Shown: piece by piece, positions 17,077-64,000 of the stretch
Numbering within the stretch: the first letter of the stretch is position 1
How the letters are laid out: every line of letters begins with the position of its first letter
Assembly (NCBI GenBank): GCA_040285855.1
Contig: JAUFOQ010000013.1
Coordinates: 1,054,001 to 1,118,000 of the forward strand
Length of the DNA: 64,000 nt
DNA from: Eukaryota sp. GEM-RC1
Taxonomy: Eukaryota
Direction: 5' to 3'
Position numbers and translations under genes: made by a program
The notes under the pieces: model-generated
Told to the model about the DNA's origin: nothing
The model's input: the letters and a program-made list of their open reading frames with translations, nothing else
Databases searched by the model: none

Positions 17077-18545
17077 CTAAACAGTAACAATTAAATTAAA
17101 ACATGCAGTATGAGCTTTCTTATAAGGAGTATTAAAAGGAGTACCAGCCACAACCACAATCTTATCCCCCCTCTTAGCAAACCCACTGTTCAAAGCGTAC
17201 TCTGAAGCAGCATCTGGTAACTCATCAAAGTTAGAAACACCTCCACAATGCACCCCACGTACACCATAGACGATGTTTAACTTTCTCAACACATCAATCG
17301 ATGGAGAGACAGCAACAATGGGAATTCCAGGTCTTGTTCTACTTAATCTACAAGTAGAAAAGCCAGTTTCAGTGAAGTTAATCATGCACTTTGCCCCAAC
17401 TTGTCTAGCCATTTCCTTAGCAGAGAAAGCAACAGCATCAACATCATTAGTTGCACTAATGGTGATACCAGTTCTATTGGCACTTCGATCAATAACAAAT
17501 GCTTCAGCTTCGAGCATGATTGAATCCATGATAGTTACGGCTTCTACTGGAAATTGCCCAGAAGCAGTTTCAGCTGACAACATGACGCAAGATGATTGGT
17601 CAAACACGTGTGATGCCACGTCACCAACCTCAGCCCGGGTAGGACGGGGGTTGGAAACGACACTTCTCCAAACAGTGAGTGGCAATGATAATAGGCTTAC
17701 CAGCTTCACGACACAATCCAATGAGCCTCTTTTGAATCACTGGAACAGAAGCGGCAGGTACCTCGACTCCAAGATCCCCTCTAGCTACCATGATTGCATC
17801 ACTCAAACCAATAATCTCGTCAATATTGTCCAAAGCTTGAGGTTTTTCTATTTTAGAGATAATATGAGGTGCATCATGTTCAGAATTGTTAACACTTCTC
17901 CAATCTTCTATAAAGGCTCTTGCTTCCCTGACATCTTCAGCGTGTTGAACGAAGGAAAGGCAAACGTAGTCGACACCTAACTGCAGGGCACACTTCAAAT
18001 CACGACGATCCTTCTCAGTCATTGCAGAAACTCCTAGTTGGACAGTGGGTAGGTTAACGCCTTTTCTATCACTAAGAGCTCCACCAAGTTTGGATACACA
18101 GACAATCTCAGTATCTGAGACTGACACGACGTCAAGCTTAACCTTTCCATCGTCAATGAGAACGTAGTGGTTGACCTTGGAGTGGGTTAGGAAGGCCTCA
18201 AAGATTTCAGGGTGAGGGGAGTCCAACACGGGTGTTGTCACCTGGACGAAGACAACGAGTGAAAGTAAAGGTTTGACCGGGTTGCAGGGTAACTGGGCCG
18301 TTTTCAAAGGTGCCAATACGGATTTTTGGTCCTTGAAGATCTGCAACAATAGCAGTACTGAGGTAGTCGTCTGTGGACAAAGAGCGAATTAAGTTATATG
18401 CTCTTTCATGGTCTTCATGTGAACCATGGGAGAAATTCAATCTGAAAGCGTTGACACCTTTATCCAATAAGACCTTAATCTTATCAAAAGAAGATGGACC
18501 AACAGTGGCCAGAATTCGAGAAAAACGGAAGGTCTCGAGATTCAT
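17077..18545 (-). CDS. PYK: Pyruvate kinase (two apparent extra bases)
   Basis: ILATVGPSS, FRLNFSHG, DLQGPKIR, KGVNLP, SKIEKPQA, MVARGDLGVE, PRPTRAE, VMLSAETASG. Frame breaks at G run 18216-18219 and TT 17664-17665. Confidence 0.92.
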
Positions 18546-18605
18546 CTGAAAAAAGTAAACCTCCAAACAACATTGCCTCATTTTGACTTTCTTACTAGTA
18601 ATTGA

Positions 18606-25048: not shown

Positions 25049-25383
25049 TTGAATTCACGAAGACACAATAATATCGTCTTTCAGCCTTTTGCAGTTTCAT
25101 TGTACGGAAATTTCGGTTCTTCTACCAAGGAGTTTTTATATATATTTGAAAATTTGTGTTCAGAACTTGGCAAGAAGTTTAACAGATCGTACTGGAAGAG
25201 TAAATTTGCTTTTTCGATTTTTAGGTCTATGTATAGATATGTTGATTCCATTTTGTCCAAGTTGTTTGGAGGCAACTACTTTTCGGAATTAGGTAGTTCG
25301 TTTGATAATTTGTTTTAATAGTGTTTATCTATTTGTACTTAACTTATTATGTGTTTTTCTCCGCACATAAATCCGTTTTTTTT
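25049..25383 (+). mobile_element. 5'-truncated RLE-type LINE 3' end (SINE-like)
   Basis: Encodes IVFQPFAVSLYGNFG...YWKSKFAFSIF (RLE C-terminus), then a 3' UTR ending CATAAATCCG-T8; near-identical copy at 52055-52384. Confidence 0.8.
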
Positions 25384-26715
25384 ACTAAATACATGTATAC
25401 AAAATGAATAAATATACAAAAGACCAACACGACAATTTTTTGTCGTACGACAAAATATATCATGAGGTCATAAATCTGTGATTGCTGAAGTGCAATCACA
25501 AGTGATTGACAACACTTTCCCACAGCAAAATGGCAGGTAGAATCTCATCTCTGAATGAAGTTAGTGTGTAGAACATCCAAAACAACAGTTGCGAAGAAAC
25601 GTAGTCAGAGATGTATCCCCAAAGAACATCTCCCATGGCAACGTGGAGGAAGTGTTCTGCTTAAACAACTTTTTGGGCTTTGAGATGCCACTAACTAGCT
25701 TGTTATCCAGAAGCATGTGGATTTCGAATTCAGATGTGTTATGGTTACATAGAATGACAGCGAAGTGGTTTATTTGAACTGGACGAAGAAAAGTGCCATA
25801 ACACTCTAGCTATAACCTAGTTTTCTGTTCTTGTCATATGTCTAGCAAGTTCAGGGTCATCATTTCTTCTAGAGCAAGTTCTTCCATTGTGTCATGTTGC
25901 CTCAAAAAGTCCGCAGCTCGTCTTTAGTATCAAACACAAACAAGGGAGGAACAGTTGCTAAGGGGGGACAGACATAAGAAAGACAATTATAGAAGAAGCA
26001 GATTAAAGAACAGGAGGAGATGGAAACTCCAAACGTCATCAAGAATTGTCGTGTTTGTCTTTTGTGCATTTAGTCAGTTTTGTGAATTTATGTTTATTTA
26101 GTTGTATATTTAGGTTGCCTCTTATTTATTTATTGTTCTGTGAGTTACAGACAATATATTTATTGTTGGTCGAAACAATAAACAATATTATTGCAATATA
26201 TTGCAATATATTTAAATACATTGATGTCCTATTTTGTCTGTTTTTACAGTAATACAGTGTGCTATTTTTGAAGAATTATAGTGGAAAGTGATCCATTGGA
26301 GGTTGCTGAGCACGATACAATTCTATCTGAGTCTTCTTTATGTCTGAACATAAGGAAATTGTTACCCACTCCTGTTCAAATCTGTACTTGATACGATTTG
26401 TTCTGCTTAATACGACGGAAATCCAAACTGTTCTGTTGTTGTGCAATTGGAGTTACTCCAAAGAAGTATCTTCAATCAGAGTATTATTCACTACACAATC
26501 TATTGAGCTCCTTTAGGACGATGACGAGTCTGAGTAACATTTGATATATCATAAAAAATGTTAGAGCTGTTCTTGTCTGGTTATTGATACATAGAAACCA
26601 ATTAAAATTAACCAATATTTATTGTTTTCGACAACAATAACAATATATTTATTTCTGTCAAAAACAATAACAATATATTTATTTTTATCGAAAACAATAA
26701 ACAATATATTTATTT

Positions 26716-27288
26716 TTGCAATTTCGATCTGTTCTACATAACGCTGTTCGTGACGTTACTTATGAAATGTTCAAATCCTACAACTATAGTTGTAAAATTG
26801 AACCTCTTCTGAAACATTATAGTGACAATAACGTGTTTGATTCTCGGCGCGGTGACTTAATTGCTCCTTTTCTGGATTCATCTCAAGTTGTGGTTGATTT
26901 TACTACAGTTGACCCTTTTGCAAAAGTCTACCAAGATTCCATACTAAATGATTCGAATGGTCATCTGGAAAAGGCTGAACAGCGAAAGTGTTCAAATTAT
27001 GCGGATGCTTTGCAGAAACTTAATGAAAATCTATATTCTAAGTTTTCTTTTGTTCCATTTGCAATTTCAATTTTTGGCAATATTGGTCCAGCCGGTTTAA
27101 AGTTTTTTAGTGATTTTAGTCTTTTATGTCGTTCTAATGGCAAGGTGTTTAATAGCGCTGTATGGATTAATCGAATTATGTTTGCTCTTTATAGAAGCAT
27201 TCCCAAGTATTTATGTTCCATATATTCGAAGTTGTATAGGGACAATTCTCGAGTTGATGTGGAGAATTTAACTTCTTTCATTTTCTGA
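26716..27288 (+). mobile_element. RLE (restriction-like endonuclease) domain of a CRE-like non-LTR retrotransposon, 5'-truncated
   Basis: LHNAVRD, KIEP, RRGDL, VVDFTTV, AEQRKCSNY, FVPFAISIFG follow the HN / E / RxD / D / K..Y / F.P..G motif order of RLE elements. Confidence 0.85.
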
Positions 27289-28282: not shown

Positions 28283-29591
28283 TCAGAAATAGCAAAAACC
28301 ACGACTCCAAACAAATACTGCAATTACTAGAAAAGAACCATCATGGAAATCCAAAAACTGTTTAAACTGTTGTAAAACAAGTGTAGGATTGTCTTTAGCA
28401 GCAAAATGGCCAGAATTAGAAACAATCAAAAAAGCAAGAAAATCAGACATGTTAATCCAACCTTGATGAATACCATCATAAATGATTGGAACAGCAGAGA
28501 CATTATCCCATTGGTCAAGGCCAGTCAACGAGTTTAAAACTTGTCGCAAGCCAAAACTATTGCACATTAGATCGTACTCCCCCGAATAGATGAAAATTTT
28601 AATTTTCTGTTTTACAATAGACTGTAATATACTTCGATCATCACTACAAGTTGAAGTAGAGAATAAAGACCGACATTTTGAGCTGATTAATGATGAAAGT
28701 CGTTGACCTGACGCATGAAGGTCATTAATGATTGAATTAACGTATGGTACAATCATTGATTCTGGAAATGAATATTTAGAATTTTTAACATGATGAGCTG
28801 AAATATTTAAATTATTTGCAATATTGAGTACTCCATTAACAAAAACTTTAGAAGATGAAGAAATATTTTTAGAAAGGAGATCGAAAACCTCACATTCAAA
28901 ACTTGAAATTTCCCTTGACATGACATTATTTAAAAATCCCATATGACTGTAAAAAGTTCAAAAATGATGATACTTGAACATCACAGGAAATGATTGGATT
29001 TCCAGAAAAAAGTCCATAAATATTAAACTTTTGAGATAATTCCAGTGCTAGACGCGATGTAAATTTGATTCCAAAGGAGCTTCCGCCTAGAATAATTTTT
29101 GAGCTAGAAAACTCAGGAAAACAAGTGATAAATTGGTATAATACATCAACAATAGCTTCAGTAGATCTTGTCAACGATCCATCATTCGAAGTAGAAATCG
29201 ATAAGCCAGTGTCTGCAGGTTGGTCGATGAACAGAATCGGATATTCAGATCCTAAAGAGGAAATCATATGGGGCCGTTGATTTACCAAGTTGAATGGACC
29301 TGTTTCAGAGAAGAGAGCAGAGAAGAGAGAGATACAAGGTCCCCCAGGAAGATATACTATTAGATTGTTTAAGGTGGCAGTAGCAGGAACAGTAAGAAGA
29401 GAAAACACAAGACTATTATTCACTCTAGTATAGAAGGAGTAAGTTGAGATTGAAGAAGTTGAGAGAGGATGGACAAAGGAACGGTGTTTGATGATGTCTG
29501 GTCTTTGGCCAATGTAATCAGTGAGTATGAAGAAATCACAGGAAGCACTGCCAAGCAATAGAGATATGAAGAGAGTGTAAACAAGAAGCAT
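28283..29591 (-). CDS. Serine carboxypeptidase (S10), one apparent indel near 28930-28940
   Basis: Signal peptide; LPGGPC..ETGPF, ILFIDQPADTGLS, GGSSFG (Ser), YSGEYDLMCN (Asp), SGHFAAKDNP (His). Confidence 0.85.
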
Positions 29592-32704: not shown

Positions 32705-32802
32705 CTGGTAAAGTTACTACCCTGATGCAGAAGATGAAGACAATGAATTCATTGATGCTGTGAATTTCATTCCAATTGCCCTTTTGAGGAATCACCCTTC
32801 AT

Positions 32803-33416
32803 CAGGCTTCACTAAAGTAGTCCAAAATTCCAAATTAAAGTAAAGTAAAGTAATCTTCTTTACTTTAAGCTTTACTTTACTTCAGCTAAAAAGTTACTTT
32901 AAAGTCAATAAAGTTTGACCTGATCTCAATCCGCTTTTCACAACTTTCTCTCTTCAGTTTTCTTATTCAATTTCCGATCCCATGTACACATGACTTCACT
33001 CAACTCCGAACAACGGATACCAGTGGGTAATGAGTCGAGAGTTATCCAAAACTGAGGAGACACAGCGAATGGTGCATCGGAGATGAACTGGTTTCTGTGT
33101 TTATAGCGGACAATCTCGAACTATCAGATACTGATTGATGCATTGAAGTGACCTGAAGTGACCTGACGTTTGAATAATGGATCTTGGTTGAAAAAGTTTC
33201 TGCAATAAACCACTTTATAGCGTTTTTTTGTTTTGCGTTTTTGTTGAGTATCTATGATAGAACATGTTATACTGGTGTAAGAGAGTTATTTACAGTGCTC
33301 AGAAAGCAAAATAAACAAGTTTGAGGTCTGTTACTTTACTTTTGCAAAACTTTAAAGTAAAGTAAAATAAAGTAAAGTTAAGTCACTTTGGGAATTTATC
33401 ACTTTAGTGAAGCCTG
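32803..33416. mobile_element. hAT-type MITE
   Basis: Perfect 16-bp TIR CAGGCTTCACTAAAGT; 8-bp TSD CCCTTCAT (32795-32802 and 33417-33424); AAAGT/ACTTT subterminal repeats. Confidence 0.93.
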
Positions 33417-33749
33417 CCCTTCATACATTTTCTTGAGCTTAGTTGTATTCTAAAGAGGTTAAATTCAATTAAAATTTTTCTAGTCGAAACTGCTGTAGTA
33501 CATACATGTGGAATTTTTTCGTTTGCTATTTCTGTATTCAGCAGTATTGGTGGAATGACTTGTTTCTTTTTATCTGATTTTGGATCTATGTGTCAGTCTC
33601 AGAATTAGAGATTTAACTTATCAAGTGGGTAAAAGCGTGTTTTTTTTCGTTGTTCCATTCGATGTCTAAGTTCTTTAAATCAATCTATATTTAATTGTAT
33701 TTAAAACTTCAGTTTCTAATTATTAAGAAACCTATTTGAAGCACAAATC

Positions 33750-51727: not shown

Positions 51728-52054
51728 GTGTAGGAGTGAGATGTTGGGTATTCAAAAGTGGCAAATTGATCACTATCAGTTGACTTCTATTGACAATACG
51801 AAGAATTGTCTTGACTTATAATGTCCGTCTTTTAAATCATATTTAAAGCTCAAATAATACTCTACTCATGTATGCAATAAGGGTGAGATATATGGTTGTT
51901 GTAGAGAAGATTCTAAACTGACAATTGCAGGTTCAAATACGATTAATACACGATCAATGTTATAATATGAAAAAGGAATGTACAAAAAATACCCCACTCC
52001 ACGAGTTTCACAGCAATTCAATACTGTACCATAATTGGTGGTAGCACAAACAAC

Positions 52055-52384
52055 AAAAGCGGATTTATGTGCGGAGAAAAACACACAAGAAAACAACAAA
52101 TAAAATAACACTATTAAAACAAATTATCAAACGAACTACCTAATTCCGAAAAGTAGTTGCCTCCAAACAACTTGGACAAAATGGAATCAACATATCTATA
52201 CATAGACCTAAAAAATTAAAAAAGCAAATTTACTCTTCCAGTACGATCTGTTAAACTTCTTGTCAAATTCTGAACACAAATTTTCAAATAAATCTAAAAA
52301 CTCCTTGGTAGAAGAACCCAAATTACAGTATAAAGAAACTGCAAAAGGCTGAAAGACGATATTATTGTGTCTTCGTGAATTCAA
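52055..52384 (-). mobile_element. Second copy of the 25049-25383 LINE 3' fragment
   Basis: Reverse complement nearly identical; same 5' start TTGAATTCACGAAGAC and same CACATAAATCCG end. Confidence 0.85.
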
Positions 52385-52471: not shown

Positions 52472-53683
52472 TCACGAATAAATCATAAAGAAATCATCTG
52501 CTTCCTTTTCAGAATCCAAAACAGGCTTAAAGTCCAAAATAATCACGTCATCAAACCCCTCATTCTTGGAAGGTTCTTCAAACTTCTTAAAGAACGTATG
52601 AACAGCTACTGGCGGGACAGACCGTCCACCTTTACATTTCCTTATAGAATTCAAATGAGCACAAACCTGTTTGGAGGCCTTAATGACTACAGAAACAATT
52701 GGAATACCGTGTTGTTTTGCAACTTCAATGAACGGCTCTCTGCTGGAAACAGAAGGACTAGTATTATCCACTACAACAGTCTTCTTTGATTCTACATGAG
52801 TTTCGAGTGTGGACATCACCTTTGCTGGAGTTTTGAGCTGATCACGTGATACTGAGACAAAACCATTGGAGAGAAAAGATCTCGCAACCAGAGATGACTT
52901 ACCAGAAGCTGGTGGGCCTGTAATCACGATTATTTTCTGATCTCTACTTTCAATCAAACTGCCAAGGTCATAATCATTGGACAGATTCCTCTCAAAATGA
53001 TTAGAAGGGTCATAACCAAAGGAAAAACTAGTCGAGACTGGTTCATTCAGAAAGAATTCTTCAGGAGTATAAAACTTCAACCCACAATTCTGAGCAAATG
53101 CTCGATCAGAGGCTGAGAAGTCAGTTTTCTTCTTAGTATCAGGGTCAAACCTTCCTGCTGCGTCACCAACATAGAAAGAGTTCTCCTTGTCAATGTCCAC
53201 GTTGAACTGTTGGGATAGAGAACGTAGCATTGCTGGACAAGGCTTTCTAAACTTGTCAGAGTCTAACGCACAGTACACGGCGAATGGCAGATCCAGAATG
53301 GACAATAGCGAGTCAATTCTGGATTGGAGAGATTGAAGAGTGAGTTTTTTAGAGGAAACCCCGAGTTGATTGGAGAAGATGACGAGAGAGAATCCATCGG
53401 AGTGTAGTTGATTGAGTTTGGTAGGAATGGATGGGTGGAAGAGAAGGAAATCATCAGCGCTTTTAGCAAACTTAGCACCACTTTTTGTATTGATTAAAGT
53501 ACCATCTAAGTCAAAGGAAGCTATTTTAGAGGTGGGAAGCCAATTGTCAGGAAAACGCATAGCGAGTGATCCTTCAACTTTCCATGAATGTGTATCAATT
53601 TTAGACTGTTTTATGTTTAAACCAGCCGAAGTAAGAGAAAGCTTAGACTGTGTTGCTGTACGTTTGCGGTTGCGAGTTTGCAT
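52472..53683 (-). CDS. PNKP: Bifunctional polynucleotide kinase 3'-phosphatase
   Basis: HAD motifs FDLDGTL, FSNQ, RKP, YVGDAAGR, DFSASDR; kinase P-loop GPPASGKS, VVVDNT. Likely ATG at 53683. Confidence 0.93.
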   Translation of the reverse strand: MQTRNRKRTATQSKLSLTSAGLNIKQSKIDTHSWKVEGSLAMRFPDNWLPTSKIASFDLDGTLINTKSGAKFAKSADDFLLFHPSIPTKLNQLHSDGFSLVIFSNQLGVSSKKLTLQSLQSRIDSLLSILDLPFAVYCALDSDKFRKPCPAMLRSLSQQFNVDIDKENSFYVGDAAGRFDPDTKKKTDFSASDRAFAQNCGLKFYTPEEFFLNEPVSTSFSFGYDPSNHFERNLSNDYDLGSLIESRDQKIIVITGPPASGKSSLVARSFLSNGFVSVSRDQLKTPAKVMSTLETHVESKKTVVVDNTSPSVSSREPFIEVAKQHGIPIVSVVIKASKQVCAHLNSIRKCKGGRSVPPVAVHTFFKKFEEPSKNEGFDDVIILDFKPVLDSEKEADDFFMIYS

Positions 53684-53696
53684 AAGATTAAACTGT

Positions 53697-55775
53697 ATGA
53701 TAGAGAAAAAGTCAGCTGATAAAATAGAAAGAGAACGTGTAAGTTCACTGAAGCAATTTTTCAGAAGTTTGTCAACAACCATCACTTTGCATGCCTCATC
53801 TTCCAGCTCGTCTTTTGTTGAAAAGAGGTATGCTCTGCAGGCAGATTCTCCTATAACTCCTCATGATACGAGTCAAATGCATCCTAATCTACCCAAACAA
53901 TCCTCTACAGTTTCTCTATCTCCAAGAACTGTAAGTCCTAAGAAAGTCAGTCCTTCTACAAACATAGCTTCAGAAAATGAAGAAACAGATCGTCCTGTAA
54001 CTCCACCACCCCCAACTACTGACTCTACTGAATCCAAACCTCTCGAAACTCCTGAATATCACCGTGAAGCTGCTCCGCCTACTCCAGTCCCAGAGAAACC
54101 TAAAGATAAGCCTAAAACCCCTCGAGGAAGGAGGAAATCTACTACTAAAGTTAAACCAGACTCCTCACCTTCATCTGTTGTTAACCTTTCTGACTACATT
54201 GTCACAACTACCTTTACCAGATCCCAAGCACGTGCTCTAAGTACAGACAGAGTTCCCTCAGGTCGAGACTCAACCTCAATGGCTGACCTTTTGGATACGT
54301 CTGTTACTAACAACATTCTAACTAGTCTGAAGTATGGGGGTAAGAAGAAGAAGAAAGAAGAAGTCTATTGTACATGTCGACGTCCTTTCTTTGGAGTCAT
54401 GGTTTGCTGCGATGTTTGTGATGAATGGTTTCACATTGAGTGTGTTGGTTTATCAGAGGATGATGCTAACAAGGCAGATGAGTGGGAGTGTAAGATGTGT
54501 TTAAAGAAGAAGGAGATCAAACAGATTGAGGAGATGAAGGAAGAAGAAGAGAGGAGGCGGAAGGAGGAGGCAAAGAGGAAGGAAGATTTGGAGAAGTTGG
54601 GAGATGCCGGCAAACGAAGACGATCTTCACTAGGAGGCCCAGAGGCTAAAACTGACAGAACAGCTTCCTCATCTGATGACGTGGCAGATGAGAAACATCA
54701 CGTGATACTCCCAGTAACTCCAGCTACTGAACCCGTGGTGATATCTCCTCCCAGTGTTGTTGAAGAGACTGTAGAAGAGGAAGAGGAAGTTGTTGTGAAA
54801 GAAGAGGTGATAGAGTTACCAATGTGTACCAACGAATCTTGTTCTAATTCAGTCAAGGTAGATTCGTCGTTTTGTTCAAAGAATTGTGGATATGTATATG
54901 TTCAAAAGACAATGTCGTCGAGTAAGTTTGTTGATGATTCTGGATTTGACTTACCTGCTGTAGTTGAGGAAGTTAAGCCAGTAGAGAAGACAAAAGTTAC
55001 TTCTGTGCCAGTGGTTGATTTAAATAAGGAAGTTCCCACTCAGCCGCAATCAGAAGAGACCAAAATCGAAGGTGATACTGAGCCAGTTAAAGTTGATTCT
55101 AATGAGCAAGTTCCCACTCAATCACAGTTGGAGGAGACCAAAATGGAAGGTGATACTGAGCCAGTTAAAGTTGATTCTAATGAGCAAGTTCCCACTCAAT
55201 CACAGTTGGAGGAGACCAAAATGGAAGGTGATACTGAGCCAGTTAAAGTTGATTCTAATGAGCAAGTTCCCACTCAATCACAGTTGGAGGAGACCAAAAT
55301 GGAAGGTGATACTGAGCCAGTCAAAGTTGATTCTAATGAGCAAGTTTCCACTCAATCACAGTTGGAAGAGACCAAAATGGAAGGTGATACCTCTGAGCCC
55401 ATTCATTCAGAACCACTGTCAAAAGAAGAAATCCAACAACAAGATTCAAATGATATCAACGAAGTAGCTCGAATCCAAGCTGAAATGATTGACCTCGAAA
55501 TCAAGAAAAACCAACTGAACAACCGCAAGATCCACCTCGATTCTCTCATGTACAAGGTAGAAATGCTGCGGAAAGAGGATCCTGATCTGTGTGGAGTAGA
55601 AGTTAGTGATGGTTCAATGTGTATGAAGTCGAATTGTACTGAGCATGCTAGCATTGCGTTCTTAAGAAATGAAGTTGTTTCAGGGTTGGAAAAGGCGGAT
55701 GATGACGTTGCTCAATTGAAGCTATTATCGGAGCAGCTACAGTCGCGGTTATTAACTAGGATTCTAAGGCAATGA
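53697..55775 (+). CDS. PHD finger protein, Spp1/CFP1 (COMPASS)-like
   Basis: PHD YCTCRRP..MVCCDVCDEWFHIECVGL..WECKMC; CTNESC..SSFCSKNCG and C-terminal LCG..C.K..C.EH as in Spp1/CFP1. Start is 53697 or 53877. Confidence 0.75.
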   Translation: MIEKKSADKIERERVSSLKQFFRSLSTTITLHASSSSSSFVEKRYALQADSPITPHDTSQMHPNLPKQSSTVSLSPRTVSPKKVSPSTNIASENEETDRPVTPPPPTTDSTESKPLETPEYHREAAPPTPVPEKPKDKPKTPRGRRKSTTKVKPDSSPSSVVNLSDYIVTTTFTRSQARALSTDRVPSGRDSTSMADLLDTSVTNNILTSLKYGGKKKKKEEVYCTCRRPFFGVMVCCDVCDEWFHIECVGLSEDDANKADEWECKMCLKKKEIKQIEEMKEEEERRRKEEAKRKEDLEKLGDAGKRRRSSLGGPEAKTDRTASSSDDVADEKHHVILPVTPATEPVVISPPSVVEETVEEEEEVVVKEEVIELPMCTNESCSNSVKVDSSFCSKNCGYVYVQKTMSSSKFVDDSGFDLPAVVEEVKPVEKTKVTSVPVVDLNKEVPTQPQSEETKIEGDTEPVKVDSNEQVPTQSQLEETKMEGDTEPVKVDSNEQVPTQSQLEETKMEGDTEPVKVDSNEQVPTQSQLEETKMEGDTEPVKVDSNEQVSTQSQLEETKMEGDTSEPIHSEPLSKEEIQQQDSNDINEVARIQAEMIDLEIKKNQLNNRKIHLDSLMYKVEMLRKEDPDLCGVEVSDGSMCMKSNCTEHASIAFLRNEVVSGLEKADDDVAQLKLLSEQLQSRLLTRILRQ
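55014..55390 (+). repeat. Coding 78-bp tandem repeat, ~4.8 copies
   Basis: Unit QVPTQSQLEETKMEGDTEPVKVDSNE; the Val codon (GTT) recurs at 55032, 55110, 55188, 55266 and 55344. Confidence 0.95.
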
Positions 55776-56100
55776 AGTTTTGGGGAATTTTTGTATTTTA
55801 CTCGCTATAAATAACATTTAGCTGTGTTCTCAAATTTTAAGAATAGAATTTATGTATTGACACAACGAAACTGAATATAAATAAAGACTATTAATCGAAC
55901 TACTCAAATCTGACAAATAGTCATAATTGAACAACTTGGACAATAAGGAAATAACATATCTATATATCAACTTGAAAAGAGAAGTTGGAAGTATAGACCT
56001 CCAACTAATATTTCAAAAACTGTTCATGTAGATTGTTGAAAAATGAAACATAAATAATATTTCAAAAATGGGTGATTTATTTCTATTATGTACATTTCAA

Positions 56101-57381
56101 TCACTCATACACTACTTTAACTCCATTAAGAGAATCCTTAGCAAGGGTCAAAAAGTGACGTAAACACACAGACAACAACGACGAATTATAGAAGTTATCA
56201 GAAGAACCTGAATGATAGGAAACTAGAAACTTGTACAAGAGTCCAGCAGTCTCATCACGAACTTCTTGAGAAATCAAATCTGACAAACAACTTTCTTGAG
56301 GGTCATCATAAACCAATAGACCAGTGAGCTCAGAAATACGTGGCAATGACGTGACTTCTTCTGAAATCAACCATTGATCCCAATCATTCTGTAATAACGT
56401 GCGTGCTAGGAAAAGAGCTTTGTCAACGTTTTTTCGTCTGACTTCTTCTAGAAAAACTTGCATTTTGAGCCTCAAAAGAGCGGCAGATTTGCCATGAACT
56501 CTCATTAACTCCTCATCCTCTGACAACGTGGCAAATGCAAGCTCAGAATTACCCGCCCTAATTGCTGACGTCACCATCGTCCTACAATTAATGAGCTCCA
56601 CTTGATTGCTAATCTGTTTCTCACTATAACCCAAAGCTTGACACATTGACTGGAATGAATCAGGTAGAGATCTCTGATACAGATAGTCCAGCACAAGTAA
56701 AGGTGCAGCAACCATTGAGTTCTTGTGGATAGCTGATGAAGTAGCGAAAAGTTTATCAAAAACAGTGATTTTGCATTGTTCAATAAAACCATCAACATCA
56801 AATTGAAAAGGTCCTGCAAAGTTAACCTTGACTCGTTCATCAGGAGAATGTAAGCCCACAGATGGATAGAATTTGATATCATCTCGTGGCCTGATTGATT
56901 TTGACCCAACTATTCGACCGTTCTTCACGAATATGAGCTTGCCTTCTGATGGAATGAAGCCCATGCCAATTATGTCTCCTTGGGTTGCTTTCTCGTAGAA
57001 GTCGGATCCAGAACCACTTTGAGCAAAGAGACGGCCATCGTCAGCGTGGTAGGCGTATGAGTCTGCATTCCAACCAGGATGTCTGTTGAAGTTGTATACT
57101 TCTGGGATTATGCCAATAGCTACTGCACATATGAGTCCTTTGTTGAGAATTGTTAGTTCAAAGTAGTAAAGAAATGATTGGGACGGTATGGGTTTATCTG
57201 CTCGTAGACAAGCAACATCAGAGCTGGAATCACCTACACCAGTGTAAGTAAAATCAAGACCATCGGCACTCAATGAAGAAAACTGAAGAGCTGAGGAATT
57301 AGAAGAGAGTCGTGTAGGTAGTAAATCTGTAGGACAAGGTTCCAGAGTTAGAAGGGAGTGAATAAGAGTGGGAGAAGACAT
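56101..57381 (-). CDS. RanBP9/10 (Gid1)-like SPRY-LisH-CTLH-CRA protein
   Basis: RADKPIP, YYFELTI, PGWNADSYAYHADDG, GDIIGMG, YPSVGLHSP, VNF..PFQFD; CTLH-like AIRAGN..A and LRLKMQVFLE. Confidence 0.88.
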   Translation of the reverse strand: MSSPTLIHSLLTLEPCPTDLLPTRLSSNSSALQFSSLSADGLDFTYTGVGDSSSDVACLRADKPIPSQSFLYYFELTILNKGLICAVAIGIIPEVYNFNRHPGWNADSYAYHADDGRLFAQSGSGSDFYEKATQGDIIGMGFIPSEGKLIFVKNGRIVGSKSIRPRDDIKFYPSVGLHSPDERVKVNFAGPFQFDVDGFIEQCKITVFDKLFATSSAIHKNSMVAAPLLVLDYLYQRSLPDSFQSMCQALGYSEKQISNQVELINCRTMVTSAIRAGNSELAFATLSEDEELMRVHGKSAALLRLKMQVFLEEVRRKNVDKALFLARTLLQNDWDQWLISEEVTSLPRISELTGLLVYDDPQESCLSDLISQEVRDETAGLLYKFLVSYHSGSSDNFYNSSLLSVCLRHFLTLAKDSLNGVKVVYE

Positions 57382-57746
57382 TTTATTAGGAGCTAAAAAA
57401 GTAAAACCGAACGGTTTGTTGAATCAACAGCTGTCTTATGAGTACTTACTTAAAATGTGAAGAGAAATGATTACTCATATCGATTATGAGATACAACCAG
57501 TATTGATTGAATTGTGAAAAATATTTCGTGCCTAACTCATAGTCTTTTGAGGAACCTGACAAATAGAAATACCAATGTTAATATATGAAACATTATGCTA
57601 TTTTAAAAACAACTACATGTATTAGGTCTGCATTAGTAGTCTATGGTGTCCTAAACAGGTCAAAAGCGAATTATCGAGATTCATACATAGAAATATTTGC
57701 AGTGTTAGTCAGATTAGGGCCTACGGAAAAATATTTGTATTTAAAT

Positions 57747-58369
57747 CAGGCCCTCTCATAAGATAATTTAAAATAATTTGAACATCACAAAGTGCCAAAA
57801 ATCAATGTGAAATAAATATAATTAAAACAAAATAAAACACAAATATAAGCAAAATATTATTATACAAGTCTTAGTTCAAGTCATTGTAAGATAAACCAGT
57901 TCATTGGCTCGTCTAAATGACCTTTTTCTTCTTATGTTTGATCCAATATTGTCATTTCATCGAGACCATGAAGATCGATCAGCATTTTAGTTGCTATAAA
58001 GTTTCTTTCGTTCACTCCTAAAGAATAGGTGGATTGGATGAGAAAACCGCTTCATCAACATCTACTAATCCGTTGTAGGAAATTTTGACAGTTTCATTGA
58101 AATGAGCACAATTTTCGTTAATGTTGATGATTCTGACAGGACCAGTTGGCACGCGTTCATTTTGACTATGATCTAAAAGAGAGTTTTGCACTTAGATTGA
58201 GTATAAAGGACCTCAAGTGTATGGATAAACGAAAGAGATTCTATTTATTTTTATTTATATTTTGTTTTATTTTGTTGTATTTGCATGATCGCCAAAAAGG
58301 CTCAAAAATAAATATAAATAGAAATAAATAGAAATAAATAGAATTTATATTTATTTATGAGGAGCCCTG
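57747..58369. mobile_element. hAT-type MITE nested in 57715-59224
   Basis: Imperfect TIR CAGGCCCTCTCATAA / TTATGAGGAGCCCTG; 8-bp TSD ATTTAAAT (57739-57746 and 58370-58377). Confidence 0.85.
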
Positions 58370-58676
58370 ATTTAAATATTTCAAATAAATAATGATATTT
58401 AATTTATTTTTTCAACTAGAAGATGGGTTTCTCTATTATTTATTTTATGAAAACAGAAAATAAAAAATTACATTGTATTTATATATTCTTTTGTTCTTTC
58501 CCGTAGTTCAGTTGGTACCAAAATAAGAAGCTCCCTCCCAAAGAGATGGCCCTCTACTACTTTCGGAAAATGAATCCCCAGGCAGACGAAGTTCCTGATG
58601 GTAAAGTCGGCTAGAAAATGTAGCCTTTTCCTCAATGTACTGCTTATACTGCTGAAAATGCCATATTCTTCACTCG

Positions 58677-59068
58677 ATGACATTTGAAACTGCTATCGTC
58701 AAAGTTTTGAAGACACAGGAAGTGGAATTAACTACAGCTGAGAAGGATACACTTCTTAAATTTGAAAAAGCGCCTTCTGATATCGCACTGGAGTCAGTAG
58801 ATATCCAATCTGATTTGAACAATTCTGCTCTTCGAAGGCAAAATGCGTCAGGTTATACAGACCTTTCATTCATCCCGGGTACTTCCAATGACTGTGAAAG
58901 ACTGTTTTCAGCTGTACGGCGAACTATTGGTGAACATCGTTTTGGTTTGACTGCTGGCCATTAGAAAAACAACTTTTCCTACACTATAACCGTTCTTTCT
59001 GGAACACTGAAACTTTGAGGAAAGTTATAAGAAACAAAAAGTCAGCAGAAGTAGTCGTTCTATTGTAA
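58677..59068 (+). pseudogene. hAT transposase C-terminal (dimerisation domain) fragment
   Basis: FETAIVKV, FIPGTSNDCERLFS..R..L..H|LEKQLFLHYNRSFW matches the hATC motif. Confidence 0.8.
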
Positions 59069-59232
59069 GAATACATTTGTAAAGTGTCATAATATTTTTG
59101 TCTTAATGGTATAAATAATTTAAATAATTGCAATTATATATTTTCTTCATCTGCAATAACTCATATTTATTTATTCAAGAGAAAGTTTGCCATATTTTAT
59201 TTAAATATCTTTCCGTAGGCCTTGAGTCAGAT

Positions 59233-59446
59233 GTCCAGACGTTAAAAGATTGGCACAGGCAAAACAGTCTTTAAATTCATAGGACACGCATTTTTAGACA
59301 GAATTTTTGACTGTCAATTTACTGTACCTACTGTGAATTTCATTCCAAATGCATAAGGGCATAACCCTTCACATTTTCATGAGATAAACCACAGTTGACA
59401 AAGTCCTCATTCGCAAAGTCTTTTAAGACGAGCTAACTTCATAGAT
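59233..59446 (-). ncRNA. Candidate Fanzor omegaRNA scaffold
   Basis: Non-coding segment directly 3' of the Fanzor stop. It contains a ~97-nt imperfect hairpin (59309-59405) with stacked helices GAC/GTC, TGTCAA/TTGACA, CTGTG/CACAG, AAATG/CATTT and AAGGG/CCCTT. Confidence 0.5.
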
Positions 59447-62329
59447 TCAAGATTCCTGATCTTTCTGGTTTACATGTGAGTCCTTGGGTACATCTTTCTT
59501 AGGCTTATTTGGACAAGTTGTTTTGTTATGTCCAGGTTGAGAACATATACGACACTTGTTAGGACCTCTGACTTTTGTTAGAGGACGCTTTGCTTTACCC
59601 TTACCCTTACTCACAGTCTTTTTCTTAGGAATCTGATCTGTATTCCCGCCATCCACGACAGGTGTTGTTTGAGATTTTGGTCTCTCGAGGATGGCAGGTC
59701 TACCTTGACCTTGAATGGTTCCATTTACAATATTGTAAATATTGATAGCAGAGTTGAAGTCTCTATTCCAGAGGACATGACATTTAGCACATTCAACTAA
59801 GCCCCATGGTGAGACTTTGTTGTTCTTCAATCTTTCTTTCGAAAATGGCAACTGGTCTGTCCATTCTTTTCAAAGTTACGCTCCACAATATTGTCTAATT
59901 GATTGTGTTCCATAATTTCCTTTTTTAATTCTTTCTCTTCCTTCTGTAACTTCTTCTTCCAATGAGGATCTGTGACTTTTATCCTTTCAGGATTGGAACA
60001 GATACCTTCGTCGTTTCTGGAAACACATGCAGAGCAACATTTGCTGGTCTTAAATTCATCAACTAGGAACACTTTAAATCCAAATTTTCTTAATAATTTC
60101 CGAATTGAAGCACCTTTTACAGTAGATGCTTTACCTCTTCTTCGACGAAAAGCAGTGTCGTTCCAGTCTCCATACCCAACAACGACTTCATCTGGGTTTC
60201 CAAACTGGAGAGCAAATCTGTGAAGCATGTTTTTCTCACTTCGTTCCTTTCTTGAATACTGTGTGAGACGATTCCTCCTAAACCACTTTTCTTCGTAAAT
60301 TCCTTCAGTAGTTCTTTGATCAGTAGTGGGTGATCGTAATAAAGAACAGGTAATTTCTTTACCAAGAACAAAATCAGAATACTGAGTCAAATCACAAGAT
60401 CTACTGCCTGGCGAGTTAGAGCCCCATTGATCTAAAATTTGTTGCCCATTTATGTCAATGCGTCTGCCATCTGGAATGTGAATAAATTGAGTAGAATATT
60501 GTTGTAACCGTTCGGATTCAGATAAACGGTGGAGATTGTATCGTCTTATTTTCTTCTCCAGCTTCCTCTTCTTTCTCTTAGCTCTTTTTCTTTCCTTCCT
60601 TGTTTTTTTCTTTTCCATGGAGACTTTTTAATATCGGCATTGCGTTCCCCAGCAGTGTATCTGAATACTTTCCAATTGTCTCGATTTTTCAACTTGACAG
60701 TTGATGGTTTGTCAATAGTAGGTGCGTCTTTCCAATCCTTCAATTCCTTTTTTAATTTTTTCAAGCTTCCTTTTTTCTTTGACGATTTTGGACAAATCTT
60801 TCTTCTTCTGAGATTGGCTGATGTATCGAAACCTTCGATTTTCTTTTCCTCCTTAGATTTTAAAGAAGCACAATACATCAAATCATGCTGATTAGGATCA
60901 ATAGCAACAATTCTTTTTGATTTCAAATTTAAGTTTTGAATTTCTGTGGAACTCAAAGAATCAATGTACCTTTCAGTAGCTGTGTAGTCAACAGCTTTCA
61001 CCTTCTTATGAGGATTTCCTCTCCCATCAAGCAGATCTTTCCGCATCATCATTAAATTACAGCTAACTCCATCTGTAGAAATAGAACTGTATTTGAAGTC
61101 ATGAGACAATGACTTTGGAAGACACTTTGGTTTCAAAACTGAGTGCCAAATATCTTTTCGAACGTCATCAAAGCTACCTTTAATTTCTGATGCATAAACT
61201 TTTTTAAACCATGTAGTATCCAATCTGATATGATTAGGAATCAATGATTTTGTCAGAGGAAAAGGATTATTGGCAGTAACACCAGTACAAGAGTCTTCAA
61301 CAAGACGTTTCAAATACACTGCATGACTTAAGAATTTCAAAGGATCTACTTTTTCAGCATTATAGATTGTTTTCTCCATTTTACCTTCAAAAAAAGTAAA
61401 CAAATAATTAAAAAATAGTAAACTCAGTCTAGAATTGGGATCAGGAAACATTTCAACATCTTGAAAATTAATTTTTGAAATTTCCCCATTAATGATCAAC
61501 TGTCTGACTTCATTAAGCTTTGTACACAACTCTTGTCGTTGATTCTTATCAGTAAGCTTGTTAAGTCTATCTTTTTCAGGGTAACCAAATTAAATACTTG
61601 AAAAACATATTCGTGAAAGTGTTCACTCATGTTATTCTTGTAATTTGTAATAATTTCTGTAGCCATGTAATGCAATATAGGAGATAAACGATGGCTACTG
61701 GGAAACACAATCCTATCAAGTCCAACGGAATCAGCAGCTAGTTCTAAACGAGGAATGTAATGAAACAATAAGTGTTGAGCAAACTGATTTTGAGTTGAGC
61801 CATCATTTGTGTTAGAAATTATGTTTGTTAACGATTCTTGTACAGTCTCAATATGATTCTGATTGTTTACAAGTCTTTCGTCCCTAATCGTCATCATAGA
61901 CAACACTTGTTCCATTGATTTCAACGTAAAAAAATTCTTCCAGTCTGGCAATTCAATTTTGGCAGTTTGAATTTTAGTCCAAAGGTCAGGTTCAGGTTTA
62001 GGTTCATCACTCGCATCTTCAATATTTTCTAATTTAATAGGAGGAGTAGCAGCATGGATAGACTCTGAATGTACATCTGTTTCTTCTTCAGTTGACTCAT
62101 CTGTATCAGAATTCATTTCTTCCTTAACAGTTACATTTGGAACAGTAGCAGGCAGTAACTTCTGAATGTAACCTAAAATACCAGAATGTTGAAAATTATG
62201 AACAAAAAAATGTTTTAAAAAGAGAGTACTACGGACTCGTACTTGATGAGCTCTCTTAACACGAGATTCAATAAATTTAACCTTCACTTTGGATACAACA
62301 TTGTCTAGTCGTTTCTTAACCACTTTCAT
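59447..62329 (-). CDS. Fanzor1-type RNA-guided RuvC endonuclease (~961 aa after three +A corrections)
   Basis: EIITNYKNN..HF, FPL...IPNHIRLDTT, ISTDGVSC, RuvC-I IVAIDPN (D 60897-60899), VVVGYGDW, LVDEFKTSKCCSAC (E 60055-60057), GLVECAKC..WNRDFNSAINI (D 59759-59761), RP..L.R. Breaks at plus-strand T runs 61572-61576, 60603-60609 and 59867-59870. Confidence 0.92.
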
Positions 62330-62729
62330 TGGTGACTTTGAACGTAATGTGAATATGAAGTGCGTCCAAAACTTCATCGTCATAACAGAGAATAGGATGA
62401 TTTTCACTACGTTGGCATTCAGCGACAATACTTTCATAATGTTTGGCAATAATAAAATTCTCAATTTTCCACAGTGAAGGCCAACAACCGGGTGAGCACA
62501 ATTCCTTCTGAATTCGATCGAGAAAAGAGCGTCGTGAACTATTATCTGGCTCAGTGATGACATCTGGAGCAGGATCTGTCAAATGTTCAAAATCATTATC
62601 AATCATTAGATGTTGTAAACATGAACAAACAACCAACCCGTCGAGTTTACCTGACCTAACAAATGGATGTGAATATGTATCATGCCAAACACGACAACAA
62701 CGGTGCCTCCTGATGTTGTGGTACTTCAT
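62316..62729 (-). CDS. Cys/His-rich segment between the 2A peptide and Fanzor (probably part of the same reading unit)
   Basis: 137-aa ORF (HRCCRVWH..SH..CSCLQH). Joins the 2A ORF with one added A at run 62731-62735 and overlaps the Fanzor ATG. Confidence 0.5.
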   Translation of the reverse strand: MKYHNIRRHRCCRVWHDTYSHPFVRSGKLDGLVVCSCLQHLMIDNDFEHLTDPAPDVITEPDNSSRRSFLDRIQKELCSPGCWPSLWKIENFIIAKHYESIVAECQRSENHPILCYDDEVLDALHIHITFKVTNESG

Positions 62730-63055
62730 CTTTTTGTCTTAGATCTTTTAATCTGTTTTCGTAGTGGCTCTTTTCGTATTCGTAGTGGCTGAGTATCATG
62801 TGATAAGGAGGACGAAGCTCTGATTATCTTTGCATCGATCATAGTTGGTCGGGTAGAGGAACCTCGTACAGAACGAGGAGGTCCCGGATTGAGTTCAATA
62901 TCACCATCAACGGAAAGATCACGTATCCACGATGTATTTCCTTCTGTAGAGAGAACACAACACCCCATGTTACAAGACTTCATCTCATCGTCATCATCAA
63001 CTGACCAAGCAGGGGAGAGCGAAATCAGACGACAAGAGGAAGACGTTGTGTCCAT
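62726..63055 (-). CDS. ORF containing the 2A peptide
   Basis: ATG at 63055; a 58-aa leader ends in NPG and continues PPRSVRG...KRSKTK. Confidence 0.55.
   Translation of the reverse strand: MDTTSSSCRLISLSPAWSVDDDDEMKSCNMGCCVLSTEGNTSWIRDLSVDGDIELNPGPPRSVRGSSTRPTMIDAKIIRASSSLSHDTQPLRIRKEPLRKQIKRSKTKR
62879..62929 (-). other. 2A-like StopGo (ribosomal skipping) peptide
   Basis: WIRDLSVDGDIELNPG/P: exact D(V/I)ExNPGP consensus with the upstream W..DL..DG pattern seen in insect-virus 2As. Confidence 0.85.
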
Positions 63056-63420
63056 TGAAGTGACAGAGCAAGCGGCGGTAAGATACCCGGAAGAAGAGAA
63101 GGGAAATGAGCAGAGAGACGCTGAGAAGCAAACAACACCCCATGTTACAAGACTTCATCTCATCGTCATCATCAACTGACCAAGCAGGGGAAAGCGAAAT
63201 CAGACGACAAGAAGAGATTGTGTCCATGGAGGTGTCAGAGCAAGCGGCGGTAAGATACCCGGGAGAAGAGAAGGGAAAGGAGTAGAGAGAAGAGCAGGGA
63301 AAGGAGCAGAGAGAAGCGGAAAGCAAACAACACCCCATGTTACAAGACTTCATCTCATCGTCATCATCAACTGACCAAGCAGGGGAAAGCGAAATCAGAC
63401 GACAAGAGGAAGACATTGTG
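62957..63420. repeat. Tandem repeat, ~2.5 copies of a 175/195-bp unit
   Basis: ACAACACCCCATGTTACAAGACTTCATCTCATCGTCATCATCAACTGACCAAGCAGGGG recurs at 62957, 63132 and 63327. Confidence 0.95.
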
Positions 63421-63709
63421 TGTGAGGTGGTTGAAGTAGAGGAACACATTCTTACAGACAAATGTAATTTGTACTTTGAACAATCTAGACTATCTATAGA
63501 TAGACATGACATGGACGTGAATGGATTTAGATAATCTTATCCAACTACATCGTTGTACATTTGCATGCAAATCAGTGATATCTCTCCCCTTTCTATCTAT
63601 TGAATTAAAAGATCAAGCTGAATATTGTTAACTGGACACTGTATCTTCACTTACTGTAAGATTATGTGTGATATGTTAATAAATGAAGCACTGTATTTAT
63701 TATCATTTA

Positions 63710-64000
63710 TTACAAAGAAGAATGCTGATAATATAAAACATAACCAGTCGATGAAATGTCAGTTAACGCTGTACGTTCATCTACAATTTGCTTTGATACA
63801 TTATTGGTATCATGCAAGAACCAAGAACCATCTACTACCTTTGTATATGTTACACAATGACTGTTAGTTTGAAAACCGTGACAGCAAATGGCAGAGAACA
63901 GTTTGTAAGTGTATAACGGATCATTTGTTCGAGTTACCACACTGTGGTGTCTTTGAAAGGATTTTCGTTCCCAATCACGACCTGTACCAAAAGACTTACT
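63710..64000 (-). CDS. C-terminal part of a USP (peptidase C19)-like domain, runs off the window
   Basis: YKLFSAICCHG..NSHCVTYTK..GSWFLHDTNNV...GYVLYYQ follows the USP His-box layout; the frame is open to base 64000. Confidence 0.65.
   Translation of the reverse strand, partial: SKSFGTGRDWERKSFQRHHSVVTRTNDPLYTYKLFSAICCHGFQTNSHCVTYTKVVDGSWFLHDTNNVSKQIVDERTALTDISSTGYVLYYQHSSL

Follow-up and report, generated by a model that had tools for sequence, protein, structure and literature searches.

A predicted Fanzor1 gene split over four reading frames in Eukaryota sp. GEM-RC1, and the 2A-like motif upstream of it

Fanzor1 proteins are programmable eukaryotic nucleases, and further natural diversity among them may provide new target-adjacent motifs (TAMs) and architectures. 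They are recognised by a split RuvC D-E-D triad whose Glu precedes the zinc finger by about six residues (10.1101/2023.08.09.552727), and a Fanzor motif, D-X(125,275)-[TS][TS]-XX-C4 zinc finger-X(5,50)-RD, has been described (PMC3627910). In SpuFz1 from Spizellomyces punctatus (PDB 8GKH, 9CEU-9CEZ), N385 of the DPN motif coordinates Mg, and the omega-RNA is located after the stop codon and before the right end (PMC10432273). Of the other solved members, PpFz1 and GtFz1 (PDB 9CF0-3, 9CER-T), the former has an extra inserted domain, FRI (PMC11423790), and additional domains are often carried by Fanzors (PMC10530073). Restorative homing has been shown for TnpB and IscB, and is only proposed for Fanzors (PMC13565253). 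Here we analyse a 64,000-nt stretch, referred to as the window, of contig JAUFOQ010000013.1 from Eukaryota sp. GEM-RC1 (GCA_040285855.1, positions 1,054,001 to 1,118,000), in which a minus-strand gene split by three frameshifts almost certainly encodes a Fanzor1, as judged from sequence and predicted fold.

The predicted Fanzor1 core

Four minus-strand open reading frames (ORFs; O1-O4, Table 1) overlap pairwise, each successive one shifted to the -1 frame and with an A-run at every overlap. Joined from ATG 62329, with X at the breaks, they yield 961 aa, as claimed in the initial annotation of the locus, with zero in-frame stops, and every motif of the series listed there is found in the joined protein, with IDPN at residue 477, VDEF at 757, CCSAC at 765, CAKC at 848 and WNRD at 855; a zinc knuckle follows at 927. 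The RuvC triad of D478, E759 (with Cys at +6 and +7) and D858 is complete and both zinc pairs, CCSAC and CAKC, are present, again as previously stated, and the 961-aa protein thereby displays the shifted-Glu arrangement of Fanzor1. All elements of the published Fanzor motif occur in the core, with a first spacer of 283 residues that slightly exceeds the published range because of insertions. Of the 33 near-invariant columns listed from a 104-row Fanzor alignment, 29 were compared and all 29 residues are kept; the core is 90-99.6% identical to seven sisters. RuvC-I reads DPN and not DPG, which had been regarded as a departure from the usual sequence; SpuFz1 itself reads IDPN, and 100 representatives of at least 500 aa divide into 34 with DPN, 34 with DPG, 2 with another reading and 30 unmatched by the pattern. 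Since SpuFz1 and 34 of these representatives share DPN, we do not count it as excluding Fanzor1.

The pieces O1-O4 alone match PF07282 only below threshold. The comparison by hidden Markov model and structure that had been proposed as a check was conducted on P0096, a sister that spans all three RuvC parts (619/644 residues identical). P0096 passes the PF07282 gathering score (33.8 vs 26.3), and a phmmer search against solved chains gives SpuFz1 at E 8.5e-15 and PpFz1 at E 3.7e-9. The AlphaFold model of P0096 has a mean predicted local distance difference test (pLDDT) score of 74.7, and in Foldseek all seven matches at E<=0.001 are Fanzor1, with Fanzor2 at 2e-2, which bears out the earlier assignment. 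The model of a second relative, P0101, superposes on SpuFz1 with a template modelling score of 0.72 over the target. The fold comparison was made on these two stand-ins, the window copy's own N-terminal recognition (REC) part lying outside the models; both are predicted to adopt a Fanzor1 fold with enlarged REC/wedge (WED) domains, nearer Fanzor1 than Fanzor2, TnpB or Cas12, and P0101, like P0096, matches Fanzor1 structures alone at E<=0.001. By sequence, and by the fold of the 96%-identical sister, the best solved relatives of the core are the Fanzor1s SpuFz1, PpFz1 and GtFz1. A quick tree of 63 rows, built with neither named references nor a Fanzor2 outgroup, places subfamilies A and C (defined below) and P0101 on one branch (Shimodaira-Hasegawa-like approximate likelihood ratio test, 99). 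The setting is the eukaryotic, multicopy mobile-element context of Fanzor1, with clusters of up to 26 fragments and a gene-dense window containing AP complex medium subunit, VPS4, pyruvate kinase, PNKP and SPRY-CTLH genes.

SpuFz1, the top match by both sequence and fold, shares with the window copy the DPN/shifted Glu/WNRD site, the multicopy state and a candidate RNA directly 3' of the stop. Lysine-rich and acidic insertions, together with a zinc-knuckle tail, make the window core about 350 aa longer than SpuFz1. Further differences are the 2A motif and Ulp1/exonuclease modules of the copy's relatives, and no inverted repeats were identified around the window gene. The match to PpFz1 and GtFz1 is that of a Fanzor1 fold at E<=3e-8, and PpFz1 is also alike in having extra domain content, in its case the inserted FRI (PMC11423790). 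In contrast, the window copy has the canonical Asp at RuvC-III where GtFz1 has Asn, and no PolB-exonuclease or Ulp1 module is described for either protein in the available parts of their reports. P0002 and some 100 other metagenomic representatives of at least 500 aa are Fanzor1-like proteins that show 25-36% identity over the WED, RuvC and zinc regions and are shorter, at ~580-820 aa.

A multicopy family, its upstream modules and the 3' flank

With O2 and O3 as queries, homology searches yielded one metagenomic and 14 named clusters, of which Eukaryota sp. GEM-RC1 accounts for 13 and Eukaryota sp. TZLM1-RC for one. The 90%-clusters contain 18, 8, 26, 14, 13 and 7 predicted proteins, spread over contigs of 12 different lengths, and up to 15 of these proteins were examined per cluster, i.e. 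15/18 and 15/26 of the two largest. Three subfamilies can be separated by identity to the window copy: A at ~90-100%, which includes that copy, B at ~50-80% and C at ~30-45%. Dozens of fragments are 90-100% identical and named from a free-living metamonad, and the gene is one copy of what these relationships indicate to be a young multicopy Fanzor1 family. Skoliomonas sp. GEMRC is reported as a free-living metamonad with a genome that is 48% repetitive (PMC11316075). It, or an organism very close to it, is the likely source of the window. No relatives of P0096 were found in metagenome contigs, nor of P0101 or O0 (see below) in viral contigs. A count of genomic copies had been suggested; the family is seen as multicopy through its clusters of predicted proteins (up to 26). 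Its dozens of copies are annotated as 'hypothetical' fragments only, and screens needing whole ORFs would therefore miss it. We note that the C-terminal zinc knuckle, single in subfamily A, is present as a tandem pair in subfamily B members P0070 and P0083.

The initial annotation viewed the locus as a single gene starting at ATG 62329; it overlooked that the family is multicopy and has N-terminal modules, as well as the 2A-like motif upstream. Longer sisters extend beyond this ATG on its upstream side; in them the Met is internal, some having Leu or Ile in its place, and their homology to the window ends abruptly at 62350. Because the family has an upstream 2A-like motif and N-terminal modules, the 961-aa protein is the nuclease core and not the full-length product.

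PF03104, the PolB exonuclease, scores above its gathering threshold in 6 of 11 scanned proteins (P0058, P0066, P0052, P0054, P0057 and P0059) and also in P0101, P0180 and P0123. P0101, recovered by a P0058 search of 1.84 billion representatives, is an unbroken, and hence directly testable, ORF of 1473 aa that consists of a short leader, DVEANPGP, an exonuclease with the acidic motifs Exo I-III and a full Fanzor1, without breaks from the 2A motif to RuvC-III. Its exonuclease matches PF03104 at 49.4 bits and Pol delta in the PDB at E 4e-4; an Atlas search with P0101 gave no usable match. P0101 stands alone among the 146 new representatives in matching both the exonuclease and the core. P0180 comprises a leader, DIESNPGP, an Ulp1-family protease with His/Asp/Cys motifs (PF02902, 21.9 bits vs a cut-off of 20.7) and then a degenerate subfamily-A exonuclease; its C-terminal end equals the residues of the window's shifted frame at 62349, and its DNA therefore runs into the same core. 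In P0123, a different Ulp1-like segment precedes the same exonuclease. The acidic motifs of PolB exonucleases are named Exo I, II and III: P0101 has all three, P0220 has I and II, and they are degenerate in P0058, P0066, P0180 and P0031. In the window, with 1.65 kb visible upstream, no exonuclease sequence was found by tblastn of seven sisters.

These modules have counterparts elsewhere. Like 2A-bearing APE-type non-long-terminal-repeat (non-LTR) retrotransposons (L1Tc, Ingi, Rex1, L2, CR1), which are known for N-terminal 2A motifs with skipping activity ranging from high to none (PMC3708506), the family has a 2A-like motif near the N-terminus of a long ORF, but the downstream product is a Fanzor1 and no reverse transcriptase or APE endonuclease match occurs in the region. 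The PF03104 domain of P0101 resembles the proofreading domain of family B DNA polymerases (Pol delta, archaeal PolB); unlike in those enzymes, the exonuclease is joined to Fanzor1 without a polymerase domain, the named subfamilies have lost acidic motif residues and the window copy is without exonuclease. DnaQ-like exonucleases are accessory domains of LTR retrotransposons (PMC6338049). The literature searched, which excludes most subscription papers, linked Fanzor neither to 2A-like motifs nor to metamonads or Skoliomonas, and no natural PolB-exonuclease or Ulp1 fusion to Fanzor stands among the titles listed. Two supplementary files of PMC10530073, searched as text, hold zero entries for DNA_pol_B, exonuclease, Peptidase_C48, Ulp1, Metamonada or Trichomonas. 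While Fanzor1 is already known, the combination of a 2A-like motif with varied Ulp1/exonuclease modules may be new, as an arrangement not met in that literature. Much of the interest lies in the relatives, above all P0101, more than in the window copy alone: a natural nuclease-exonuclease fusion, if true, would mirror engineered ones such as, reportedly, TREX2-SpCas9, and end trimming would tilt repair to deletion or homologous restoration, with a bearing on the role of Fanzors for elements.

The window copy has its own 2A-like motif, of the same type as in P0101 and P0180, with 3e-5 expected by chance in the window. The D(V/I)ExNPG-P pattern lies at 62879-62902, and the 2A frame runs into a stop after 51 codons, except if the A5 run 62731-35 is a further break. 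Between motif and core lies O0, likely the N-terminal module of this copy, whose junction with the core falls at residue -7 relative to the proposed start, at the domain boundary. With 13 host ORFs as its training set, a three-periodic coding model orders the frames as 2A, O0, O1, O2, O3 and O4 from 62970 to 59461, with 3 of 39 bins off this path. O0 has no Pfam match at E<=1, no NCBIfam match at E<=0.1 and no Atlas match, its PDB matches are weak (best E 0.01, not credible) and it shows no similarity to P0180. The position of the junction and the common 2A motif suggest, as far as sequence can tell, an exchangeable module; alternatively, the junction may reflect chance truncation by another element. 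Farther upstream on the same strand, beyond the repeats of Table 1, a ubiquitin-specific protease (PF00443, E 4e-4) has its C-terminal end encoded at 63710-64000 and may be a host gene or element cargo.

At the other end, the 214 nt that separate the stop from a hAT remnant are more structured than shuffled sequence (z -3.30 on the coding strand, 0/200 shuffles; z -2.28 on the other strand), which makes this flank a candidate omega-RNA scaffold by analogy with SpuFz1. A second, diverged ~55-nt copy of the flank lies near 32758-33438, interrupted by a 614-nt miniature inverted-repeat transposable element (MITE); with a score of 61, the alignment exceeds the maxima reached by 2000 shuffles (42) and by 420 window segments (38), and it contains no compensatory pair in its two rows. 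Rfam gave a single match, at chance level (E 0.73). Elsewhere in the window the candidate guide is unmatched at <=3 mismatches, and a 22-nt match in metagenome locus L001, found with a 20-nt flank pattern and lacking a Fanzor, was taken as chance. No inverted repeat pair bounding the gene exists within 55000-64000. The hAT remnant was rejected as carrier of the Fanzor1: with ends and an 8-bp target duplication of its own, it is a separate insertion. Within it lie a fragment of a dimerisation domain (58656-58961) and, nested, a pair of inverted repeats (57738-57772 / 58344-58378). The MITE (32803-33416) has 16-nt terminal inverted repeats (TIRs) that begin with CAGG, its target duplication measures 8 bp, and folding of 32801-32920 gives z -4.3.

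Frameshift breaks and competing readings

We consider it probable that all three breaks are long-read sequencing errors, an origin likelier than real decay; the intactness of the window copy is unproven. The sisters tallied are 40 subfamily-A rows (41 minus P0043, taken as the window's own protein), which are gene predictions selected by likeness to fragments, not DNA. Five of the 40 continue through break 1 and 21 begin at a Met just past it. At break 2, reached by 21 sisters, 14 stop exactly like the window, four are in frame and three end otherwise. At break 3 all 12 anchor-matching sisters are in frame, P0092 alone having the same A-run haplotype and local residues. Leaving P0043 aside, three rows are open at break 1 and broken at break 2, three start after break 1 and are open at break 2, eleven have both breaks and none has neither; such mixed combinations are as expected from independent under-calling of each run and also compatible with recurrent slippage plus gene conversion. 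The proposal that one A be added to each of three runs stands for 61572-76 and 59867-70. At break 2, which holds the runs 60625-29, 60611-14 and 60603-09 (A7), it had been placed in the last, where none of the four in-frame sisters has it; they imply 60625-29 or 60611-14, and subfamily B retains an S-x-W-K reading there that favours 60611-14 or later.

Host genes in the window are also split at homopolymers (pyruvate kinase twice, VPS4 and serine carboxypeptidase once each), and a membrane-protein gene has three frame changes by our own reading. The breaks in Fanzor1 thus belong to the same error class, as had been proposed, but mostly with the opposite sign: all four in the three named enzymes are extra bases, not a missing A. 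Euplotes-type +1 frameshifting is excluded for these host genes, as conserved pyruvate kinase and VPS4 residues need the shift before the stop. The GEMRC assembly was made from R9.4 nanopore reads corrected with Illumina, and fragmented BUSCO genes amount to 9.6% in its predictions vs 3.0% in the transcriptome (PMC11316075). The error reading is favoured because sisters read through each break, the combinations are mixed, no in-frame stop occurs and homopolymer indels are present in single-copy host enzymes.

Among the host genes concerned, pyruvate kinase (17077-18581) lies in three pieces from two single extra bases that are likely assembly errors. The VPS4 AAA ATPase gene (5196-7218) has a long low-complexity N-terminus and is split near 6545, where a G6 run contains a single extra G; the serine carboxypeptidase (S10) gene (28283-29591) has a +1 break near 28930; and the large multi-pass membrane protein gene at 8777-14025, without Pfam match, apparently has the three frame changes.

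The explanation we prefer, by a modest margin over even chances, is a copy of a multicopy Fanzor1, its frameshifts being long-read errors, with an RNA-guided nuclease made from a longer, 2A-processed frame; it draws on sequence and on analogy with characterised systems. An element transcript would be translated through the 2A frame, and ribosomes would skip at NPG/P, freeing a protein of module plus Fanzor1, in which the module may be Ulp1 with a degenerate exonuclease (sisters), an exonuclease with intact motifs (P0101) or O0 (window copy). By analogy with SpuFz1 and TnpB, this protein would load the omega-RNA from the 3' flank, with 15-20 nt past the right end as guide, and cut TAM-flanked empty sites, so that repair could restore or spread the element. 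An active exonuclease would trim the cut ends, a degenerate one may merely bind DNA, and the Ulp1 protease may strip SUMO-type marks. That 2A, O0 and core form one natural reading frame is, in our estimate, an even call, and that the window copy makes an active nuclease falls somewhat short of this. In a more far-reaching version, which we regard as rather unlikely, the metamonad Fanzor1 lineage would be a 2A-processed polyprotein with an exchangeable N-terminal slot, ancestrally filled by an active PolB-derived 3'-5' exonuclease trimming ends and later by a SUMO-type protease or the Cys/His O0, with the window copy intact, expressed and hidden by assembly errors.

Several observations weigh against this explanation. 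Break 2 is common to 14 of 21 sisters, and those in frame disagree on the longer run, which is the first in P0088 and P0097 and the second in P0095 and P0096. No whole subfamily-A sister is among the matches listed, each break but never all three being read through, and subfamily C too has common break points, P0058 and P0062 leaving frame just before RuvC-III. The gene has three breaks in 2.9 kb vs seven in 28.8 kb of 15 host genes of our choosing, about four times the rate (Poisson P 0.034), which either repeats escaping short-read correction or decay would explain. A single frame from 2A to stop needs two further changes, a -1 at A5 62731-35 and a +1 shortly before 62350, the latter without a long run, and O0 is present in 0 of 245 proteins compared. 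In the P0101 model, pLDDT is below 50 over most of residues 1-318, so the exonuclease fold is not confirmed. At the 3' end, the second copy of the hairpin is unfolded (z +0.79), z<=-4 is reached by 3 of 320 background windows, and the coding stretch 59601-59720, just after RuvC-III, folds about equally (z -3.06, coding strand) and may belong to an RNA scaffold that overlaps the ORF.

The shared break 2, the lack of a whole sister among the matches listed and the elevated break rate would all be expected if the frameshifts were real, that is, if this were a dead or dying copy from a master already broken at break 2, passively carried, its 5' end scrambled by insertion or recombination with another 2A-bearing element. 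The replaced 5' module and the hAT remnant beside the 3' flank point the same way, and homopolymers are also true mutation hot spots. We nevertheless hold decay to be unlikely on balance, given the mixed break combinations across copies, the complete lack of nonsense codons with 29/29 conserved residues retained, and a 5' junction that falls seven codons ahead of the core, at a domain boundary, a 2A motif preceding it as one does in P0101 and P0180. Improbable in our view is an intact core made alone from ATG 62329 (or 62563) as a 961-aa Fanzor1 next to an unrelated 2A motif and O0: other Fanzor1s, e.g. P0002, start about there and the O0 and O1 frames differ, but sisters have this Met internally, or in some cases Leu or Ile instead, the coding signal extends upstream gap-free with no non-coding room for a promoter, and relatives bear the 2A motif too. 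A programmed -1 ribosomal frameshift at A-AAA-AAA, limiting nuclease output, would account for break 2 being common to most sisters and for the slippery-type heptamer in the O2 frame at 60603-09; with no stimulatory structure downstream (z +0.2 to -1.1), four sisters in frame and breaks 1 and 3 devoid of such a heptamer, we consider it very improbable indeed.

Feature coordinates and other features of the window

Table 1 Features of the Fanzor1 locus and its flanks (positions in the window).
Feature	Position	Strand	Basis
O1	61499-62578	minus	ORF listing
O2	60549-61589	minus	ORF listing
O3	59830-60627	minus	ORF listing
O4	59450-59869	minus	ORF listing
Predicted Fanzor1 core coding region, four frames	59447..62350	minus	sister homology begins at 62350; 961 aa from ATG 62329
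Break 1, A5 run, -1 frame	61572..61576	minus	5 sisters read through
Break 2, -1 frame, placement among three A-runs uncertain	60603..60629	minus	4/21 sisters read through
Break 3, A4 run, -1 frame	59867..59870	minus	12/12 anchor-matching sisters read through
RuvC-I motif IVAIDPN, catalytic Asp 478	60891..60911	minus	aligns to SpuFz1 IDPN
RuvC-II shifted Glu and first zinc pair, VDEFKTSKCCSAC	60025..60063	minus	PF07282 match under gathering score
Second zinc pair and RuvC-III, CAKC...WNRD	59759..59791	minus	motif match
C-terminal CCHC zinc knuckle, disordered tail	59513..59554	minus	PF13696 E 0.0086, under gathering score; pLDDT
2A-like (StopGo) motif ending DIELNPG-P	62879..62929	minus	sole such motif in six frames of window
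O0, 140-aa Cys/His-containing frame between 2A motif and core	62351..62738	minus	best coding frame, 4/4 bins 62700-62341
Three imperfect repeats, 175/195-nt spacing	62949..63536	minus	upstream of 2A motif; may be a leader ORF
Structured 3' flank, candidate omega-RNA scaffold	59233..59446	minus	long hairpin ~59327-59395
Candidate right end (59331) and candidate guide beyond, weak	59311..59331	minus	exact identity to second locus ends at 59331
hAT remnant	57715..59224		222 nt past stop; 19-nt TIR match, 8-bp target duplication; PF05699 E 0.062

Elsewhere in the window, a 195-aa ORF at 26701-27285, with no Pfam match at E<=0.01 and no NCBIfam match at E<=0.1, presumably resembles the C-terminal restriction-like endonuclease region of non-LTR retrotransposons. 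A 336-bp dispersed repeat occurs in two inverted copies (25049-25383 / 52052-52384, 93% identical), with a weaker third piece at 55876-55978. Finally, a PHD-finger protein is encoded at 53427-55775, with five 78-nt tandem repeats at 55014-55403, and overlaps the antisense start of the PNKP gene.

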